DNA of 42,219 nt from IMG/VR virus record IMGVR_UViG_3300044878_000044, positions 1-42,219 of that record. One strand, given 5' to 3'. The notes beneath the pieces were generated by a model. It searched no databases. It had not been told where the DNA came from and saw only the letters and a program-made list of their open reading frames with translations. The position numbers were made by a program, and so were the translations under genes. Shown here piece by piece: positions 2,558-42,185 of this stretch (within the stretch, counting starts at the first letter, position 1; each line of letters opens with the position of its first letter). This DNA comes from a virus. Its lineage: Duplodnaviria > Caudoviricetes.

Positions 2558-3237
2558 TGAGAGATCGCAGAACGGTTTATCTGCACAAGGGTTATCGGTT
2601 GCGCTCTTACACTGAGCTGATGTGGGCTCGGGCGTTGGATGCCGTCGATATTTTCTATCTGTACGAGCCGCACCTTCAGCGCGTCGAAGGTGGCAGCTAT
2701 CTCCCGGACTTTTACCTGCCAAATATCGGTATCTATCTCGAAGTGAAAGGGAAAGACCCGAGCCAGGAAGAAATCAGGAAAGCGGATGACGTCATGCATC
2801 GCACGGGAACGCCGGTGGTTTTCCTGGTTGGCAGGCCCGAGAGCGATGTTAATGGGCTTACCAACTGCGCAATGTTGTCGAAAGGCGCGGCCGGCTGGAC
2901 GAGCAATATCTGTCCGCACGACCTTGACCAAATTTACAAGGAGCATGCCGGCATAGGCGCATGGCTGAAGCTTCTGGTTTCCGTCCGCCAAGATGACAGC
3001 GATTACGTCAGGCAGGTTTCCGATATCGTCGAGGAATACTTGATGGATCTGATGGGGCGGTCGGTCATGGAAACGCACTTGCGAATGACTCACATGCGAG
3101 TGAATGAGCAGCGATCTGCGGAGCATCGGGAAATCTCCATGGCGGAGCGCGGCCTGAGGATGTTCGTTGAGCGGCAGGCCGCTAGACGCGCGCTAGAGCA
3201 TCCGGATGCGTTCAGGGCGATCTCAGCGACCGTTTAA
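2557..3237 (+). CDS. Putative PD-(D/E)XK nuclease
   Basis: RSYTELMWA...YEP...YLPDFYLP...YLEVKG motif pattern. Confidence 0.7.
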   Translation: MRDRRTVYLHKGYRLRSYTELMWARALDAVDIFYLYEPHLQRVEGGSYLPDFYLPNIGIYLEVKGKDPSQEEIRKADDVMHRTGTPVVFLVGRPESDVNGLTNCAMLSKGAAGWTSNICPHDLDQIYKEHAGIGAWLKLLVSVRQDDSDYVRQVSDIVEEYLMDLMGRSVMETHLRMTHMRVNEQRSAEHREISMAERGLRMFVERQAARRALEHPDAFRAISATV

Positions 3238-3337
3238 TCCCGCGTGGATAAGCAAGCGCGATGGTTGCTCGCAAAGCGGAATAGAACCTGCCTGGCGCGA
3301 TGTCAGGCAGGATCAACGGGATATAGGGGTGGAAGGG

Positions 3338-4198
3338 ATGAGTGATCACAGTGATTTGAAGAAGAAGGCCGAGGCAGCGCTTGTCGTTCATGACTCTTTC
3401 GAAGAGAACGCGAAGGCTGCACACCTTTACGTCTCGGCATCTGAGCCTGAAGTAATCCTTGAGCTGCTCGCCGAGATCGATCGCCTGCGAACTGCCGAAG
3501 GCGATGCCATGACCTACAAGGCCGGAATGGAGAACGTTGCCCAGCAGCGCGATCAGCTCAAGGTCGATCTCGAGCAGCTGGCAAAGAAAATTAAGCATAG
3601 CGACTACTGGCACGGGACGCGCTTCGAGACTCTTTTCCACTGGGCGCATCGCGAGCTGAACGACTCCCAAAAGAATCAGTATTTCAGCATCGTGGCGAAC
3701 GGCAGCTCCTACCCAGATGACCCGCCGACCTATGCCCAGCAGATGAATCAGCTGAAGTGGAAGGTTGAGGCTGCCGAGAAAGAGCGCGATCAGCTCAAGG
3801 TCGATCTCGAGCGACTGAAGCATGAACATCGGCTGCTGACCGAGCACAACGAATTTCTGGCCAGCTCCGACAGTCGACTCGCCCCTGAGCTGCGCGCCGT
3901 GAAAGACGCGCTCGGCCTTGATTTTACGGCCAGCGTTAGCGGTGAGGTGGTTCCGCTCATCGAGCGCCTGCGCAAGCTGCCGACCTGCTGGACTGAGGTT
4001 CTGGAGCAGTCCGAGGCGAACGATCAGCTGCTGGATCAGGTCCTGGAGCTGAGCCGGGACGCCGATCGACTGACTTGGCTTGACGAGTCCGCCGAGGTCG
4101 AGTCAGTCGGGCCGATGCGGTGCTGTGGGAAACATCTGCCGAGCCTTCGCGAAGCGATCGATGCCGCAATGGCATTGGAGAAATCGCTAACCCAGTGA
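3338..4198 (+). CDS. Ead/Ea22-like modular coiled-coil protein
   Basis: PEVILELLAEIDRL and RDADRLTWL...LREAIDAAM segments; purine-rich RBS-like GGAAGGG before ATG 3338. Confidence 0.65.
   Translation: MSDHSDLKKKAEAALVVHDSFEENAKAAHLYVSASEPEVILELLAEIDRLRTAEGDAMTYKAGMENVAQQRDQLKVDLEQLAKKIKHSDYWHGTRFETLFHWAHRELNDSQKNQYFSIVANGSSYPDDPPTYAQQMNQLKWKVEAAEKERDQLKVDLERLKHEHRLLTEHNEFLASSDSRLAPELRAVKDALGLDFTASVSGEVVPLIERLRKLPTCWTEVLEQSEANDQLLDQVLELSRDADRLTWLDESAEVESVGPMRCCGKHLPSLREAIDAAMALEKSLTQ
3546..3812 (+). repeat. 30-bp exact direct repeat (3546-3575, 3783-3812)
   Basis: AGCGCGATCAGCTCAAGGTCGATCTCGAGC twice, in frame, starts 237 bp apart. Confidence 0.9.
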
Positions 4199-4746: not shown

Positions 4747-5355
4747 TCAGGCCTCCAGTAGCCTCTTGACCGCTTCGGCGAAGCGCAGCGACTCCAGGCG
4801 TATCGCGCTGTCGCCGCTTCTCGTTGGTGTTCTCCCTCTGGCGATGGCTGTCGGGTATCCGATCCGGTCGCACAAGGGCACGCTAAGCACGGGCAGGCCG
4901 TAGCCGTTCAGGGCCTCGGAAATGTCCCGGCCGAGCAGCGTGTTCTGGTCCAGGCGGTTGACGTACAGCGCGGCGATGAACTCGGGTCGGTGCGCCAGGT
5001 GCGCCTTCATCAGCTCGATGGAGTCGGCGGCCGCCCAAATGTCAAAGATGCTCGGCGCGCACGGCAGCAGCGCCATGTCCAGGTATGGCAGCGCATCCGC
5101 AGACAACTCCCCCTTTGTGTCGATCACCGCGTAGTCAAACCCCGATAGGCCCTTCAGGTCTGACAGGCGCTCGGCGGTGAATATCTCAAGCGTGGTCGGC
5201 AGATTCGCAATCTCCACCCACCGGCTGACGCTGCCTTGCGGGTCGGTATCGATCAGGGCAACACGGTGTTTCTGAGCCAGCGCCCCGGCCAGGGTGACCG
5301 CACTGGTTGACTTGCCGGCCCCGCCCTTCTGCGTCCATAGCCCGATCTTCTTCAT
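4747..5355 (-). CDS. parA: ParA/ParF-family partition ATPase (short, type Ib)
   Basis: Deviant Walker A QKGGAGKST, IDTDPQGS, YAVIDT; no N-terminal HTH; start at 5355 or 5370. Confidence 0.92.
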   Translation of the reverse strand: MKKIGLWTQKGGAGKSTSAVTLAGALAQKHRVALIDTDPQGSVSRWVEIANLPTTLEIFTAERLSDLKGLSGFDYAVIDTKGELSADALPYLDMALLPCAPSIFDIWAAADSIELMKAHLAHRPEFIAALYVNRLDQNTLLGRDISEALNGYGLPVLSVPLCDRIGYPTAIARGRTPTRSGDSAIRLESLRFAEAVKRLLEA

Positions 5356-5389
5356 GAGTACGGTTCTCATTGTGAGTATTTGACTCACA
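5354..5389. repeat. 9-bp repeat cluster C over the parA start (two TGAG-N7-CTCA palindromes)
   Basis: atgagtacg/gttctcatt/gtgagtatt/tgactcaca; abuts a minus-strand TATTCT at 5389-5394. Confidence 0.7.
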
Positions 5390-5404
5390 GAATACATCTG
5401 GCTT

Positions 5405-5459
5405 GCGGATTCCGCTTGCATTGGTTGCAGATTCCGCCTAAAGTCTCTTCAGAGGGACC
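5405..5459 (+). promoter_or_regulatory. Sigma70 promoter with paired operators and 18-bp palindrome copy 2
   Basis: TTGCAT(5416)-N17-TAAAGT(5439); GCGGATTCCGC 5405-5415 and GCAGATTCCGC 5427-5437; AGTCTCT-TCAG-AGGGACC 5442-5459. Confidence 0.8.
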
Positions 5460-8456: not shown

Positions 8457-9037
8457 CGATCGAGCGCAAGCAGCCGCGACCGAAAAAGTGCAAAAACCCA
8501 GCCTGCAAGACCTCGTTCGTCCCGCAGCGACTCGGGCAAGCCGTCTGCAACTACGCCTGCGGCCTGGCCATCAAGGACGTGAACCAGGAGAAGGCGCGCA
8601 AGGCTCTGGCTGATGTAGGGCGCAAGGAGTTGAAAGCCGCCAAGGAGCGCATCAAGCCGAAGGGTCAGTACATGCGTGAGGCGCAGGCCGCTTTCAATGC
8701 CTGGGTGCGCGCCAGGGATGCAGGCCTTCCATGCATATCGTGCGGAACAACGGCGGATATCCAGTATGCAGCCGGGCATTTCAGATCTGCCGGAGGGCAC
8801 CCAGAGCTTAGGTTTGACCCTCTCAATGTCCACCTTCAATGCAATCGCAATTGCAACATGGCCAAGTCTGGAAACCTTGGGCCTTACCGGATCGAGCTGA
8901 TAAAGCGCATCGGGCAGGAAAAGGTCGATTGGCTGGAGGGCCCGCATGAGCCAAAGCGCTACACCATCGAAGACCTGAAGGCCATCAAGGCCCACTACCG
9001 GGCGCTGGCCCGCGAACTGAAGAGAGCGACAGCATGA
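8453..9037 (+). CDS. ninG: NinG/Rap endonuclease
   Basis: AQAAFNAWVRARD, CISCG, AGHFRS, LRFDPLNVHLQC, WLEGPH. Confidence 0.92.
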   Translation: MTIERKQPRPKKCKNPACKTSFVPQRLGQAVCNYACGLAIKDVNQEKARKALADVGRKELKAAKERIKPKGQYMREAQAAFNAWVRARDAGLPCISCGTTADIQYAAGHFRSAGGHPELRFDPLNVHLQCNRNCNMAKSGNLGPYRIELIKRIGQEKVDWLEGPHEPKRYTIEDLKAIKAHYRALARELKRATA

Positions 9038-9297
9038 AGAATATCGACAAGATGCGCGAAGAGTTTGAGGCGTGGCATCGGAGTGTTGTTGCTGGCGATC
9101 CGCCCCATGAAAAATACAACTCCGGGGATTATCGCAATCAGCACGTTCAGCGGTACTGGCTTGGCTGGAGATCGTCCCGTGAGGCGATGGTGATTGAACT
9201 ACCTAAGTTCGACGACTACCCGGCCAGCATGGAGCTCGAAATGCAGGAGTCGCTGAGGGGTGTCATCGAGGCCGCCGGCCTGAAGGTGAGGCCATGA
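9034..9297 (+). CDS. Hypothetical protein (MREEFEAW...W..SRE module)
   Basis: ATGA-coupled ORF; N-terminus resembles that of 40382..40945. Confidence 0.75.
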   Translation: MKNIDKMREEFEAWHRSVVAGDPPHEKYNSGDYRNQHVQRYWLGWRSSREAMVIELPKFDDYPASMELEMQESLRGVIEAAGLKVRP

Positions 9298-37941: not shown

Positions 37942-37974
37942 CCCTGCCGCCTCATCAGTTATTGGTTGTCGCAT

Positions 37975-37995
37975 CCGGGGGATTTAAACCCCCGG
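37975..37995 (-). other. Degenerate att core resembling a tmRNA/tRNA T-arm
   Basis: Minus strand CCGGGGG-TTTAAAT-CCCCCGG; lies at the late/early convergence point. Confidence 0.5.
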
Positions 37996-38062
37996 TCGGT
38001 CGTTGTATTCCGTGGCCTGTAGCGGTGTGGTAGCTGAAAAGCTGCTGAAACCGCATTTAGGC

Positions 38063-38103: not shown

Positions 38104-38769
38104 TCAGTGTGTCGCATCATCGGCGGCAAGATCCCGCTGGATTTCAGCTTTTCGCCGCTCATACCAGTGACTCCAAGTGCGAACCTCTCCGCGCTTGCGG
38201 ATAGTCACGCCTCGCTGCTTCAGTGTCCTTGCGCGCGCTGCGCTCACAGGGCGATCACTGAAGGACGGATCGGCGTATTGCTTGTCGAGCCACTCTATCG
38301 AATGCTGCTTGTCATATTTTCGGTAGTTCCGGCTCGGCTTACTGGTCGACAGCCAAGCCTCAAGCTTCGACTTTGAAATCTGGCCACCAAAGAAGCAGTA
38401 GCAGGAATGAAGCTTCTCAATCGTGCATACGCCAACCTGAACAACGGGCTCTGGACGGCTGGGGTCGAATTCGTCCCACACCTGACCATCACACTCAAGT
38501 GATCCGCCATCATCCAGCGCGATGGTGAATTTACGTCCTGCGAACGCGTCAGTGGTGCCCGGTCGCTCCACCATGAAGGAATAGAAGCCGCTGTCATTCG
38601 CCATCAGTCGACGCTGCTTGCGGTAGCCGTGCCAAGTTTCCTCTTCGCCGCGCCGGTAGATAAATTCAGGCATGCGGTCAACGACAACGGAATACTGGGT
38701 GTGCTTGCCGTAGAGGCTTGTGGTGACGATTACGTCGATTATCTGGATTTCTGCCTTGTCGATGTTCAT
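38104..38769 (-). CDS. Hypothetical protein
   Basis: 221 aa, AAGGAG RBS, ATGA overlap. Confidence 0.75.
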   Translation of the reverse strand: MNIDKAEIQIIDVIVTTSLYGKHTQYSVVVDRMPEFIYRRGEEETWHGYRKQRRLMANDSGFYSFMVERPGTTDAFAGRKFTIALDDGGSLECDGQVWDEFDPSRPEPVVQVGVCTIEKLHSCYCFFGGQISKSKLEAWLSTSKPSRNYRKYDKQHSIEWLDKQYADPSFSDRPVSAARARTLKQRGVTIRKRGEVRTWSHWYERRKAEIQRDLAADDATH

Positions 38770-38975
38770 TGCGCCCGCTCCTTGCTGTTCTCCACTGCCC
38801 CGCGATAAATCGCCCACTTGTCCCAGTGAATGCACGACTCATCGTCGCTCGCTTCGTGGTGCCACATGAAGTGGCCGCTGTCGAGCTGGATCAGGGCGTA
38901 GCCTTCGGGCATCTTGGCGAAACCCAGGCGGTTGGTGTGGTCGATTGCTCCGGTGTCCTGGTAGTAGTAGCTCAT
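38766..38975 (-). CDS. Hypothetical protein
   Basis: 69 aa, coupled to the next gene. Confidence 0.7.
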   Translation of the reverse strand: MSYYYQDTGAIDHTNRLGFAKMPEGYALIQLDSGHFMWHHEASDDESCIHWDKWAIYRGAVENSKERAQ

Positions 38976-38984
38976 GTCTCGCCC

Positions 38985-39794
38985 TCAGTATGGGATGCAC
39001 TTTTCGCAGGCGGCAGTCCAGCCGGGAGTTCCGCAGCCTGAGCACGGCTCAAGCTCGGGGCAGCCTCGTTCTTCTGGTCGAGACCAAAGGTCTTCCGGAT
39101 CTGCTTTGGCAGCCAACCCCTCGACAGCCTTGCTGTAAATGAACTTGATCAGATCCCATGGAATCATGTGTTTCTGTTCGTACTCGCCTTCACCGTCGCA
39201 GATTTCGCAATACTCGTCCGGCTCATCCAGATCGACGCACTCGGGACAGTCGTTGGTTACGCGAACATTGAACTCGCCGAGCAGAAGCGCTTTCGCCCCA
39301 TTCTCAGCAGTCAGCCTTCTCGGCATGACGCAGTAGCCGTCGGGTATCGTGGTGATGCTGTGCGACTCCCGAAGCTCAGCCCGCAGCGAGGCGATGAGGT
39401 TCTTCTGCTGCTCGACGACTGTGTTCAGGCGGTCGACCTCGCCGGCATCGGATCGGGTGAAGAGTGCGCGCGTTTCGTATCCTGGCCATTCACCAGGATT
39501 CGCGATAACCATCAGGTGATGCTCATAACTGCATGGCTGCCAGTCTTTTTGCGACGTGAAGCGTGACTGCCCGGCCACCGGCTGCGCATCAGCTTTCGGT
39601 GTGGCAACTAGCGCGGACTCTTGCCCAAGCTGGAAGTAGTACCAAGCTGACGACTTCCGGTCTGCCATGCTCCGGTTCTTGGCCAGCTCGCAGCCATAAG
39701 TGTTCAGTTCAGGGATGAAGTACAGGCCCTGCTCGTCATTTGTCTGGCCCCATCGGGCCTCAAACTGGTCTCGCATCTCTTCCTTGCTCATCAT
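38985..39794 (-). CDS. Mosaic hypothetical protein with zinc-finger motifs
   Basis: LTAENGAKALL, CPEC...CEICDGEG, CSGC...CEKC. Confidence 0.75.
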   Translation of the reverse strand: MMSKEEMRDQFEARWGQTNDEQGLYFIPELNTYGCELAKNRSMADRKSSAWYYFQLGQESALVATPKADAQPVAGQSRFTSQKDWQPCSYEHHLMVIANPGEWPGYETRALFTRSDAGEVDRLNTVVEQQKNLIASLRAELRESHSITTIPDGYCVMPRRLTAENGAKALLLGEFNVRVTNDCPECVDLDEPDEYCEICDGEGEYEQKHMIPWDLIKFIYSKAVEGLAAKADPEDLWSRPEERGCPELEPCSGCGTPGWTAACEKCIPY

Positions 39795-39967
39795 TCGCCT
39801 TTCCTCTTTCCTTTGTGGCCGCAGATAACTCCGAAGGCATAAGGTGCAAACGGCATTGGCTTGCGAGCCATCTCAAAACAATTCCAGATACAGGCCAACA
39901 GTAGCGCCCATGGCGTGAACTTCCAGAATGACAACACTGGCCACATGAAGCGCTTTGGCTTGCTCAT
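39791..39967 (-). CDS. 58-aa hydrophobic protein (not in ORF track)
   Basis: MSKPKRFMWPVLSFWKFTPWALLLACIWNC...; ATGA overlaps both sides. Confidence 0.6.
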   Translation of the reverse strand: MSKPKRFMWPVLSFWKFTPWALLLACIWNCFEMARKPMPFAPYAFGVICGHKGKRKGE

Positions 39968-40149
39968 GAGTTGATAGCTCGACTCGCCAGCGCTTCAAGC
40001 TCCGAGGCCTGACGAGAAAAATCGTCGTAATCCCACTTCGGATGTTCGTTGCGCGCTTCGCATCCGGCGTTGTCTGCCTGCATGCCGAGCACGTATGCGT
40101 TATTAGCCAAGATCAGGGCCATAATTTGAAGCTGCTCATTGCTCATCAC
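39964..40149 (-). CDS. Hypothetical protein
   Basis: 61 aa, AAGGGGTG RBS. Confidence 0.65.
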   Translation of the reverse strand: MMSNEQLQIMALILANNAYVLGMQADNAGCEARNEHPKWDYDDFSRQASELEALASRAINS

Positions 40150-40161
40150 TCACCCCTTCGT

Positions 40162-40407
40162 TTATTTGTCGCCGGACTGCCCGGCCTCATTTGCCAGCGC
40201 CTCAAGCGCGAACTGCACGGTGTACGGTGCTTTGCGGTACGTTTCGTGGTCGGTGGCCACTAGGTAGTAGCGCAGCGCCCGGTCACTCATGCCGAGTGCG
40301 GCGGCAGCCTTTCGCTGGCTGATGCCGGCCTTCTCCAGCAGCCCGCGCAGATATGCCGGGTCTGGGTTGTACAGTGAGGCATCAGGCTTCATTTGATTTG
40401 GCTTCAT
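40162..40407 (-). CDS. aca1: Anti-CRISPR-associated protein Aca1 homologue
   Basis: PDAS.Y.PDPAYLRGLLEKAGISQRKAA..LGMSDR.LRYYL...YRKAPYTVQFALEALAN closely matches JBD30 Aca1 as recalled; start 40407 or 40392. Confidence 0.9.
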   Translation of the reverse strand: MKPNQMKPDASLYNPDPAYLRGLLEKAGISQRKAAAALGMSDRALRYYLVATDHETYRKAPYTVQFALEALANEAGQSGDK

Positions 40408-40945
40408 CTTCAATCGCCGCGTCGATAGCTGCATCGTCCAGATGCTCGAACCATGCCGCCGCATTGAATTCGTGAACGTGGTGATAGCTGCCGGTGTCGT
40501 AGTTGTTGGCTCGAAGCCAGCGATGGCGCTCGGCATCCTTCCTGTCCCGATCCATGATCTTGTCGGCCTGGCGCATGTCACCCTGCGAGCATTCAAGTAG
40601 AGCGGAAAGGCGTTTGTTATCGATCCTGAGCTGTTCGCGCTCAGCCATTGCGACTTTGACGAAATCAATAGCCTGCTGAAGTGGCGCATCCTCGGTCATA
40701 TCTGCATGGGTTAGGGCTATCGCGGACAGCTCGCCAGCGATTCGAACGAAAGCCTTTTGCCATTGGCCTGCATCCGCCATCGCAGCCTCGCGGGAAGCCT
40801 GCCATGCCCACCAACCAGTCTTGACCCAGTCGCAATCATAGGAGCCATCAGGTCGAAGCTTGAGGACTTCCTCTCGCTCTTCCTCGAAGCTGTTGATCGC
40901 AATGTAGGCCGCCTCGAACTCTTCGCGAATCTTGTTGATATCCAT
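40382..40945 (-). CDS. 187-aa protein in the acr position upstream of aca1
   Basis: First gene after the operator-bearing promoter; overlaps aca1 start; acidic, helical. Confidence 0.75.
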   Translation of the reverse strand: MDINKIREEFEAAYIAINSFEEEREEVLKLRPDGSYDCDWVKTGWWAWQASREAAMADAGQWQKAFVRIAGELSAIALTHADMTEDAPLQQAIDFVKVAMAEREQLRIDNKRLSALLECSQGDMRQADKIMDRDRKDAERHRWLRANNYDTGSYHHVHEFNAAAWFEHLDDAAIDAAIEDEAKSNEA

Positions 40946-40994
40946 CCCGTCCCACTCCGATATTCGCCTCGCCCGATTGGCTGGCATGGGCCTT

Positions 40995-41023
40995 ACTATA
41001 GGAACACTGTTCCTACCTTGCAA
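40995..41023 (-). promoter_or_regulatory. Sigma70 promoter with Aca1-type inverted repeat
   Basis: Minus strand TTGCAA-N17-TATAGT; 17-bp palindrome TAGGAACA-C-TGTTCCTA at 40999-41015. Confidence 0.88.
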
Positions 41024-42185
41024 GAGCCTGAGCAGGATATTTTTCAGCGCTGCCAAACATCGCCGCCGCTTTATCTCCAGACGAGTCGCCATCGGTTGGA
41101 ATCCAGCGCCCGTATACCCGGGCAATCATCAACCACGACGCATGCCCCATCTGCTTCGCCACCCACATCGGATGCTCGCCCGCGCTCAGCATCATCGAGG
41201 CGTAGGTGTGCCGGGTCTGGTACGGGTTCCGGTAGCGCACGCCGGCCCGGCGGATGGTCGGCGTCCAGAGTGACTTGCGCAGCTCCTGGTCACCGTTGAA
41301 TGCCCGGTTGTGCCTCGGGTCGTGGAAAACGGCCTTCCCTTCTATATAGGTGTGCTCGCGCTGGGACTTCAGTGCCTCGAACGACATCGGCAGCAGACGC
41401 ACGCTACGCACCCCGGCCGCTGTCTTCGGCGTCTCTGCCTCACTGGCCGCCGCCGTCAGCCCTCGCGACACCCTCACTTCCCCGCGATGCCAGTCGATGT
41501 CGCCCCACTCCAGCGCCACAAGCTCCGACGTGCGCAGCCCGGTCCAGAAGGCGAACTGCAACAGGTTCCGATACTGCCCGGTCGCTGCCGCCAGAATGGC
41601 CCGCTGTTCGTCCGGACTGAACGGGTCGATCTCGTCCTCGGTGCGCGGCTTGCCCTTCACTGAATACGTCCAGCCGGCCAGTGGGTTCGACTCGATCAGC
41701 TCGTCGTCCACGGCATCGCTCAGGGCCGATCTCAGGCATGACTGAGCGTTGGCCAGCCGCTTGTTCGTCGCCGACATCCTGGCCATGGCCGCCTTGACCT
41801 CTTTGCGCGTGACCGAGGCCAGCGCCAGGCTGCCCAGCGTCGGGACCAGAACACCGGCAACGATCTTGCGGTAACCGTCCAGCGTGGACGCCTTCAGGAT
41901 GCCGGCCTTGCGCTCAAGCCATTCGTCCAGGTACTGGCCCAGCGGCACCTGTCCCGACTGGCCGACAGCCGACGCCGCCCGCTTCGACCGTGGAAACGCC
42001 TCGGCATAGTCGAATTCCCCCCGGTGAATCGCCAGATCAATCGAGGCCTTCTGCTGCTGCGCCCGCTTCAGGTTGGCCGGAGTAGGCTCCAACGGCAGGC
42101 GCTCCCGGCACTGCTTGCCGTCGACCATAAAGCTGATCTCGATACTGCTTTTCGATGCCGCACGCACCCCGCGCTTCGCAGCCAT
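41013..42185 (-). CDS. int: Tyrosine integrase with N-terminal arm-binding domain
   Basis: TGLRTSEL, PKT, YQTRH, QMGH, RVYG catalytic motifs; uninterrupted 390 aa. Confidence 0.95.
   Translation of the reverse strand: MAAKRGVRAASKSSIEISFMVDGKQCRERLPLEPTPANLKRAQQQKASIDLAIHRGEFDYAEAFPRSKRAASAVGQSGQVPLGQYLDEWLERKAGILKASTLDGYRKIVAGVLVPTLGSLALASVTRKEVKAAMARMSATNKRLANAQSCLRSALSDAVDDELIESNPLAGWTYSVKGKPRTEDEIDPFSPDEQRAILAAATGQYRNLLQFAFWTGLRTSELVALEWGDIDWHRGEVRVSRGLTAAASEAETPKTAAGVRSVRLLPMSFEALKSQREHTYIEGKAVFHDPRHNRAFNGDQELRKSLWTPTIRRAGVRYRNPYQTRHTYASMMLSAGEHPMWVAKQMGHASWLMIARVYGRWIPTDGDSSGDKAAAMFGSAEKYPAQALAR

Follow-up and report, generated by a model that had tools for sequence, protein, structure and literature searches.

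The closest described relative of the locus studied here is the acrIF1-aca1 operon in the head region of the Mu-like phage JBD30 (PDB 7vjm, 7c0g). In this operon the anti-CRISPR gene is followed by the gene of the repressor Aca1, the promoter spacer carries a palindromic operator, a leader hairpin stops 20 nt short of the first start codon, and the first gene overlaps the start of aca1. JBD30 has two operators, of which IR2 is given as ATTAGGCACAATGTGCCTAAT in PMC8633003. The acr-aca1 layout is well known, and genes next to aca genes proved to be Acrs in 7 of 27 cases reported in bioRxiv 2020.06.15.151498 and in 9 of 9 reported in PMC7648647. Control of unannotated genes by Aca1 has already been predicted as well: PMC13551039 describes Aca1 and Aca2 as predicted regulators of many non-acr genes, with an assigned function for fewer than half of 450.

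Two further families concern the cargo. Lambda Ea22 (Ead/Ea22, PF13935) is a tetrameric pro-lysogenic protein (PMC10834534; PMC7093339) and consists, as described in PMC10834534, of an N-domain, a coiled coil and an alpha/beta C-domain. The family PF26207 (Phage_phiTE_015, PHROG 343), of unknown function, is among the most frequent unannotated modules in phages of Pseudomonas and enterobacteria; its members usually carry a short C-half and lie mostly away from aca1. In the literature searched we found nothing on phiTE_015, or on aca1 together with Ead and anti-CRISPR. New in the present locus are the cargo and its setting; neither the cargo, nor its position between int and attP, nor a repeated capture of phrog_343 was found in the literature searched (the Aca-regulated clusters in Figure S9 of PMC13551039 may include the family).

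The window analysed here, 42,219 nt in length, is an entire virus contig. Its PHROG matches (replication initiator, DnaB, ninB, ninG, holin, terminase, head and tail genes) indicate a lambdoid siphovirus, and the kin of its Aca1 and integrase suggest a Pseudomonas as host. Megablast with positions 20000-42219 matched no GenBank phage. Elsewhere in the window we noted a ParA-like partition ATPase (4750-5421, minus strand), alongside the integrase and attP-like site of the same phage, and an acyltransferase moron (PF01757; 36007-37020, minus strand) between the tail fibre and the glycoside hydrolase 19 endolysin, possibly serving host-surface modification.

Unlike the JBD30 operon, the cassette lies between the integrase gene and an attP-like site. 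The tyrosine integrase (Arm-DNA-bind_2 and Phage_integrase by Pfam; 41013..42185, minus strand) overlaps the aca1 promoter with its final codons, its stop falling inside the promoter, and the same gene precedes the promoter in 13 of 13 sister loci. The promoter heads seven packed genes, all on the minus strand. The first encodes an acidic mosaic protein of 187 aa (40382..40945; pI 4.7) and the second is aca1 (40162..40392). Five more genes follow here, in contrast to JBD30, with gaps of -4 to 12 nt: a 61-aa gene of no recognised family 12 nt behind aca1 (39964..40149), a 58-aa gene without an assigned family (39791..39967), a 269-aa mosaic gene whose start is weakly phrog_343-like (38985..39794; E 0.007), a 69-aa gene, again with no family assigned (38766..38975), and a 221-aa gene of phrog_26990, function unknown (38104..38769), which closes the run. 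Judged by spacing alone, the seven genes would share a single transcript. The cassette is closed by the attP-like site (37974..38050, minus strand), with arm-type repeats and a core resembling a tmRNA 3' end, about 50 nt past the last packed gene and 3 kb behind the integrase stop. The promoter and all seven genes lie between int and this site, which recurs in 10 of 13 sister loci and is similar to the one that immediately follows related integrases in Pseudomonas genomes (L278-L281; a tmRNA was called in L280). The phage would probably integrate at a tmRNA 3' end. Six of the seven sisters examined showed no excisionase-like gene directly before int; a conserved short leader is found there instead, unlike in related chromosomal integrases.

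The promoter is composed of the -35 hexamer TTGCAA (41018..41023, minus strand), whose TTGC is invariant across 13 aligned leaders, and the -10 hexamer TATAGT (40995..41000, minus strand), separated by a 17-nt spacer; the region contains three promoter-like sites, against 1.1 +/- 1.3 in shuffles. The spacer is filled by the single predicted Aca1 operator, a perfect 8-1-8 inverted repeat TAGGAACA-N-TGTTCCTA (40999..41015). Perfect 8-1-8 palindromes occur three times in the window with about 0.9 expected, and a palindrome alone is unexceptional. This one is credible because it fills the spacer between -35 and -10 and recurs there before aca1 in the sisters and before recognised acr homologues, an identical or near-identical repeat preceding those of L019 (phrog_8786) and L024 (PF25703). 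Its half-site is GGAAC, whereas JBD30 has GGCAC; the predicted operator departs from IR2 at a cytosine which, according to PMC8633003, is of lesser contribution. Behind the promoter follows a 5' leader hairpin of 3 + 3 pairs (40966..40985, minus strand), of the type of the Aca1 RNA motif (PMC13551039), which ends 20 nt before the start codon as in JBD30. Its stability is not unusual (fold z 0.28); 91% of cells are paired in 13 leaders, with no compensatory change. A ribosome-binding site GGAG (40955..40958, minus strand) stands 9 nt before the ATG.

Two observations on operators may be added. In L001-L013, L152, L231, L233 and L240 the operator and the recognition helix of Aca1 covary by eye, kinship not being factored out: GGAAC/GGCAC half-sites go with DR-x-x-RYY, GACA(T/A)AC with AAG(F/L)QNY, and GGGTAAC with W(P/E)G(F/L)RNY. 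The same operator and promoter also stand before an AcrF2-family gene in L021 (3001-3370; PF25704) and L026, beside a cI-like repressor and with no aca1 match within the 3-kb flanks.

The helix-turn-helix repressor of the second gene (76 aa) overlaps the 187-aa ORF by 11 nt and is about 70% identical to JBD30 Aca1. Over residues 2-70 it matches the solved Aca1 proteins (7vjn, 7c0g, 7fa3) with a phmmer E of 5e-26, and in tblastn 125 of the 128 phage records matched are 60-80% identical to it. Nine of the ten DNA-contact positions listed in PMC8633003 (R22, S31, Q32, R33, S42, R44, V45, R47, Y48/Y49 and R59) are kept in the alignment. The exception is V45, replaced by alanine, and in JBD30 Aca1 the V45A exchange merely weakened binding (Kd 364 vs 74 nM; PMC8633003). 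Judged by its sequence the second gene is a true Aca1, and the regulatory reading of repressor, predicted operator and leader appears sound. The preliminary description had seen a TTGCAA-N17-TATAGT promoter with a 17-bp palindrome, one 187-aa ORF and then aca1; all are present where it placed them, and the JBD30 operator it gave agrees with IR2 as printed in PMC8633003. The leader hairpin, the five genes behind aca1, the integrase stop in the promoter and the attP-like site go beyond it.

Strong Aca1 matches are present in 6 of 401 Pseudomonas genomes. The 30 loci fetched in the genus search for Aca1 yielded no new module case, and a metagenome scan for aca1 gave one irrelevant locus among the matches listed; the unpublished genome G375 underlies none of the statements made here. 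About 110 of the 401 genomes carry a more distant Aca1-like helix-turn-helix gene (E 1e-9 to 1e-14; L254-L277); two such loci inspected show a chromosomal-looking context and no obvious acr. In L002 and L006 an Ead-like gene overlaps aca1, and aca1 starts with ATA rather than ATG (position 2998 in both), which means that it may be poorly made there or start elsewhere.

The 187-aa gene is a mosaic and begins where acr genes canonically do, 20 nt behind the hairpin. Its N-terminal module (residues 1-55; 40781..40945, minus strand) is a phrog_343/PF26207 phiTE_015-like helical hairpin with the motifs R-x-x-F-E and W-x-x-W-x-A-S-R. It matches phrog_343 at E 6e-5 and a 76-homologue profile at E 8e-18; the PF26207 label is taken from homologues, the Pfam search giving no direct PF26207 match even for the homologue P0014. 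The middle (about residues 57-130; 40556..40777, minus strand) consists of pieces common to Ead/Ea22-like mosaics. The C-terminal head (residues 131-183; 40397..40555, minus strand) is of phrog_4029 type with the motif DAxRxRWLR ... DxxID, the phrog_4029 match extending over residues 94-182. A single long helix, probably forming a coiled coil, is predicted for residues 97-146, and in the AF2 model of residues 96-187 (mean pLDDT 87) a helix of 50 residues is joined to a small helical head. Whereas the phiTE_015 family usually has a short C-half, the module is extended here by a coiled coil and a head. We dismissed a longer start (TTG at 41125, 247 aa) because it falls within the integrase, upstream of the promoter.

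No full-length relative of the protein was found in 5.8 billion or in 1.84 billion proteins (1.84e9 representatives); besides the protein itself, the two sets gave 11 and 75 partial matches, respectively. In P0015, P0018, P0030 and P0033 similar N- and C-modules are apparently combined, as judged by eye. A fold search against the PDB with models of the C-part (96-187) and of the related N-module gene of L110 gave nothing significant (best VIA Z 4.5 and 5.6). The BFVD fold matches are uncharacterised phage proteins only, and absence there is no sign of a new fold; ESM Atlas matches, all below 0.9, serve as leads only. Matches to RFC lid, NUDE and bZIP were rejected as coiled-coil noise.

Positions 40202-41114 are covered by a contig from another study, which shows 58 differences, no gaps and a distance of about 6% from the window (a single record, depth 6.8). 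This sole near-full-length copy is linked to aca1, occupies the same slot and has kept its reading frame intact. Over 40382-40965, 40 differences between the two copies were counted; 37 were listed in the ORF, seven of them in one block. The remaining 30 are scattered, with 22 at third positions (p 9e-6); 21 are synonymous, eight non-synonymous and one ambiguous. This amounts to about 0.18 synonymous versus 0.018 non-synonymous changes per site, a rate ratio near 0.1 (0.17 with the block). As the pattern between the two copies is that of purifying selection, the gene is maintained in the slot. In the one RNA-labelled run compared, which is probably DNA, the ORF has no coverage.

Thirteen IMG/VR contigs of a sister phage family from soil and sediment share the integrase end, promoter, leader and aca1. 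Their first genes belong by eye to 10 unrelated types of 40-126 aa (L001:2548-2826, L002:2249-2371, L003:2764-2943, L004:2563-2787, L005:2495-2662, L006:2150-2416, L008:2762-2947, L012:2783-3004, L013:2624-3004, L183:1327-1608), compared with 187 aa in the window. The first slot is hypervariable and swappable among the sisters. An Ead/Ea22-like gene stands directly before aca1 in L002 and L006, behind small first genes, and a phrog_343 gene is in third place in L009; this second or third place is that of accessory cargo. Near the 3' end of the integrase, L003 has an HNH-like endonuclease ORF (2071-2750, by eye) together with a duplicated integrase tail and an intact aca1 promoter. One sediment run contains 97% of the sampled window words and may represent the sample of origin. 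Over window 40143-41053, the best-matching run also has sister-phage contigs that carry different slot genes (a loose end at 40955, for instance, matches an L003-type gene), so several slot variants coexist within one sample.

We tentatively favour, at a little under even probability, the reading that the 187-aa protein is an Aca1-timed, Ea22-like coiled-coil accessory protein which binds a host factor early in infection. By analogy with acr-aca1 operons, entry of the DNA would switch the promoter on. Subsequent repression would come from Aca1 bound to the palindrome that lies between -35 and -10, and probably to the mRNA hairpin too, as the nine kept contacts and the published JBD30 data suggest. 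The first slot, which holds unrelated genes in the sisters, would have been filled here, probably by recombination, with a gene made of modules present elsewhere in these phages; the mosaicism and the paralogues are observed, the route is presumed. Since then the gene has been kept under purifying selection, as the two copies show. The protein probably oligomerises via its long helix, and its two small end domains would face the host partner, as proposed for lambda Ea22.

This Ea22-like reading agrees with the distribution of the modules, which are common and seldom linked to aca1. With flanks of up to 3 kb, shorter at contig ends, aca1 was found at 3 of 80 N-module loci (the best 80 of 104) and at 1 of 39 C-module loci; of the four aca1-linked loci, two are search seeds (L093 = L009, L031 = L002). 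The module gene of L081 is located shortly past attP. The window itself has paralogues far from aca1, a phrog_343 gene after ninG (9034-9282) and a phrog_4029 gene (3206-4198). The short N-domain, predicted long central helix and small C-terminal head, at about 180 aa, recall the layout of Ea22 and of PHROG 4029, as does the early accessory position, and PF13935 was found in 8 of 51 aligned C-part homologues. The presence of partial matches alone among the 1.84e9 representatives, the second or third place of module genes in L002, L006 and L009, and the length of the gene relative to the sister first genes also fit. Of the CRISPR types, only I-F was counted: its protein Csy3 occurs in 8 of 201 sampled Pseudomonas genomes. 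However, the gene starts exactly where an acr gene would and encodes an acidic protein, an unrelated prophage lineage has an N-module gene as the sole cargo of its aca1 cassette, and the published success rates for aca neighbours speak for an Acr. Pfam finds no PF13935 in the protein at E 0.1, the Ead N-terminus is absent and replaced by phrog_343, the predicted head is helical where that of lambda Ea22 is alpha/beta, and the pro-lysogenic role of Ea22 is known from lambda and Stx phages only.

The main rival, which we consider unlikely, is that a non-CRISPR defence is the target of the protein, whose phiTE_015-like N-domain would be responsible for the inhibition, Aca1 timing its expression as it does for acr genes. 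It draws on the lineage just mentioned. Counted from the aca1 side, in 97 loci (not dereplicated, 96 with a profile match), the N-module stands directly upstream in three and the C-module in two, and the three N-module cases represent a single lineage with two phages: the Pseudomonas proteolytica prophage L110 (L149 = L187 = L110) and its relative L195. In both, a two-gene cassette of a phrog_343-type gene and aca1 (L110:2926-3503; L195:2129-2722) is inserted antisense between the head protease and head morphogenesis genes. They share with the window the promoter type, operator and leader as well as an N-module gene directly before aca1; in contrast, the N-module gene there is a stand-alone gene of 92-97 aa and the sole cargo, in the head region, on the opposite strand and with nothing downstream of aca1. 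The model of the L110 gene product (pLDDT 90) shows a helical hairpin and a small C-subdomain. The literature searched contained no description of the function of such a cassette.

The leader-to-gene junctions of the window and L110 align at 72% over 102 nt, which had suggested a single aca1-linked ancestor of the two modules. Such an ancestor is unsupported: L110 ranks 22nd of 65 by BLAST score, and a weak tree joins the two at 0% bootstrap. As this tree, weak as it is, does not join them, the N-module family probably entered the first slot twice, and a double capture suggests selection for a function in conflict. The non-CRISPR reading gains from two aca1 cassettes, probably independent of each other, that have the N-module as their first or sole cargo, from the N-half that L110 and L195 share while their C-halves differ, from the purifying selection on the gene of the window, from the many non-acr genes predicted under Aca1/Aca2 in PMC13551039, and from the rarity of I-F systems in the sampled genus. 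On the other hand, aca1 is missing from the vicinity of 77 of 80 N-module loci, a family as common as this could have been captured twice by chance, and no sequence link leads to any described anti-defence protein.

Still less probable, in our view, is a new anti-CRISPR against type I systems (I-F, I-E or I-C) evolved from common phage modules. The gene has the canonical first position behind operator, hairpin and ribosome-binding site, the same operator type precedes the recognised acr homologues of L019 and L024, the protein is acidic and below 200 aa (at the long end), and the success rates of 7/27 and 9/9 favour any aca neighbour. However, Pfam, PHROGs and PDB sequences gave no match to an Acr family, and the control Acr homologues L019, L021 and L024 were detected by Pfam or PHROGs; NCBIfam gave no Acr match to the protein but missed the controls too and is uninformative. 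Names such as AcrIE3 or AcrIE4-IF7 may apply to these control genes, for which the tools returned the library labels. The protein is also longer than all 10 sister first-gene types, and the nine types scanned with Pfam and PHROGs (all but L011) match no known Acr, although the three controls did in that scan; an acr slot is therefore not established here. The first genes of L012 and L013, acidic sole cargo with pI 4.5 and 4.1, are better-shaped Acr candidates than that of the window. A classical Acr is less likely than the preliminary description supposed because CRISPR is rare in the likely hosts, the slot is without a recognised Acr, the modules are common and the helix is long.

The preliminary description had proposed the gene as occupant of an anti-CRISPR slot. 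Of this, the setting of Aca1, operator, leader and canonical start stands, and it had likewise not recognised a described Acr in the protein; against the proposal are the mosaic of common modules, already suspected there from the ends of the protein and now identified as phrog_343 and phrog_4029, and the paralogues away from aca genes. It had stated that rare linkage of homologues to aca genes would refute the proposal, and the modules are indeed seldom so linked. Its own caveat, a non-CRISPR anti-defence gene or a gene that displaced the original acr, fits better.

Least likely, and very improbable to us, is a near-neutral passenger left in front after loss of an original small first gene, its position being meaningless: the order of small gene(s), module gene and aca1 in L002, L006 and L009 would give the layout of the window by loss of the small gene, and short shared words (GGAG, and ATGAAGCC twice at the ORF/aca1 junction) are possible recombination points, but two copies about 6% apart keep the slot and an intact frame with 21 synonymous versus eight non-synonymous scattered changes, and the stretch from leader to ATG contains no leftover of a lost gene.

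A wider proposal, doubtful but possible, is that phiTE_015/phrog_343 is an anti-defence domain recruited at least twice to first slots under Aca1, here on a coiled-coil scaffold, and that Aca1 controls a hypervariable cassette between int and attP with at least 10 other first genes. If the 187-aa protein or the 92-aa gene of L110 does block a defence, this would be the first function for a very widespread family of unannotated modules. If not, ordinary accessory genes too can stand next to aca1 behind a perfect operator and leader, which calls for caution in guilt-by-association searches. The sister phages supply about 10 small, better-shaped candidates and thereby a ready-made screen for anti-CRISPR and non-CRISPR inhibitors.
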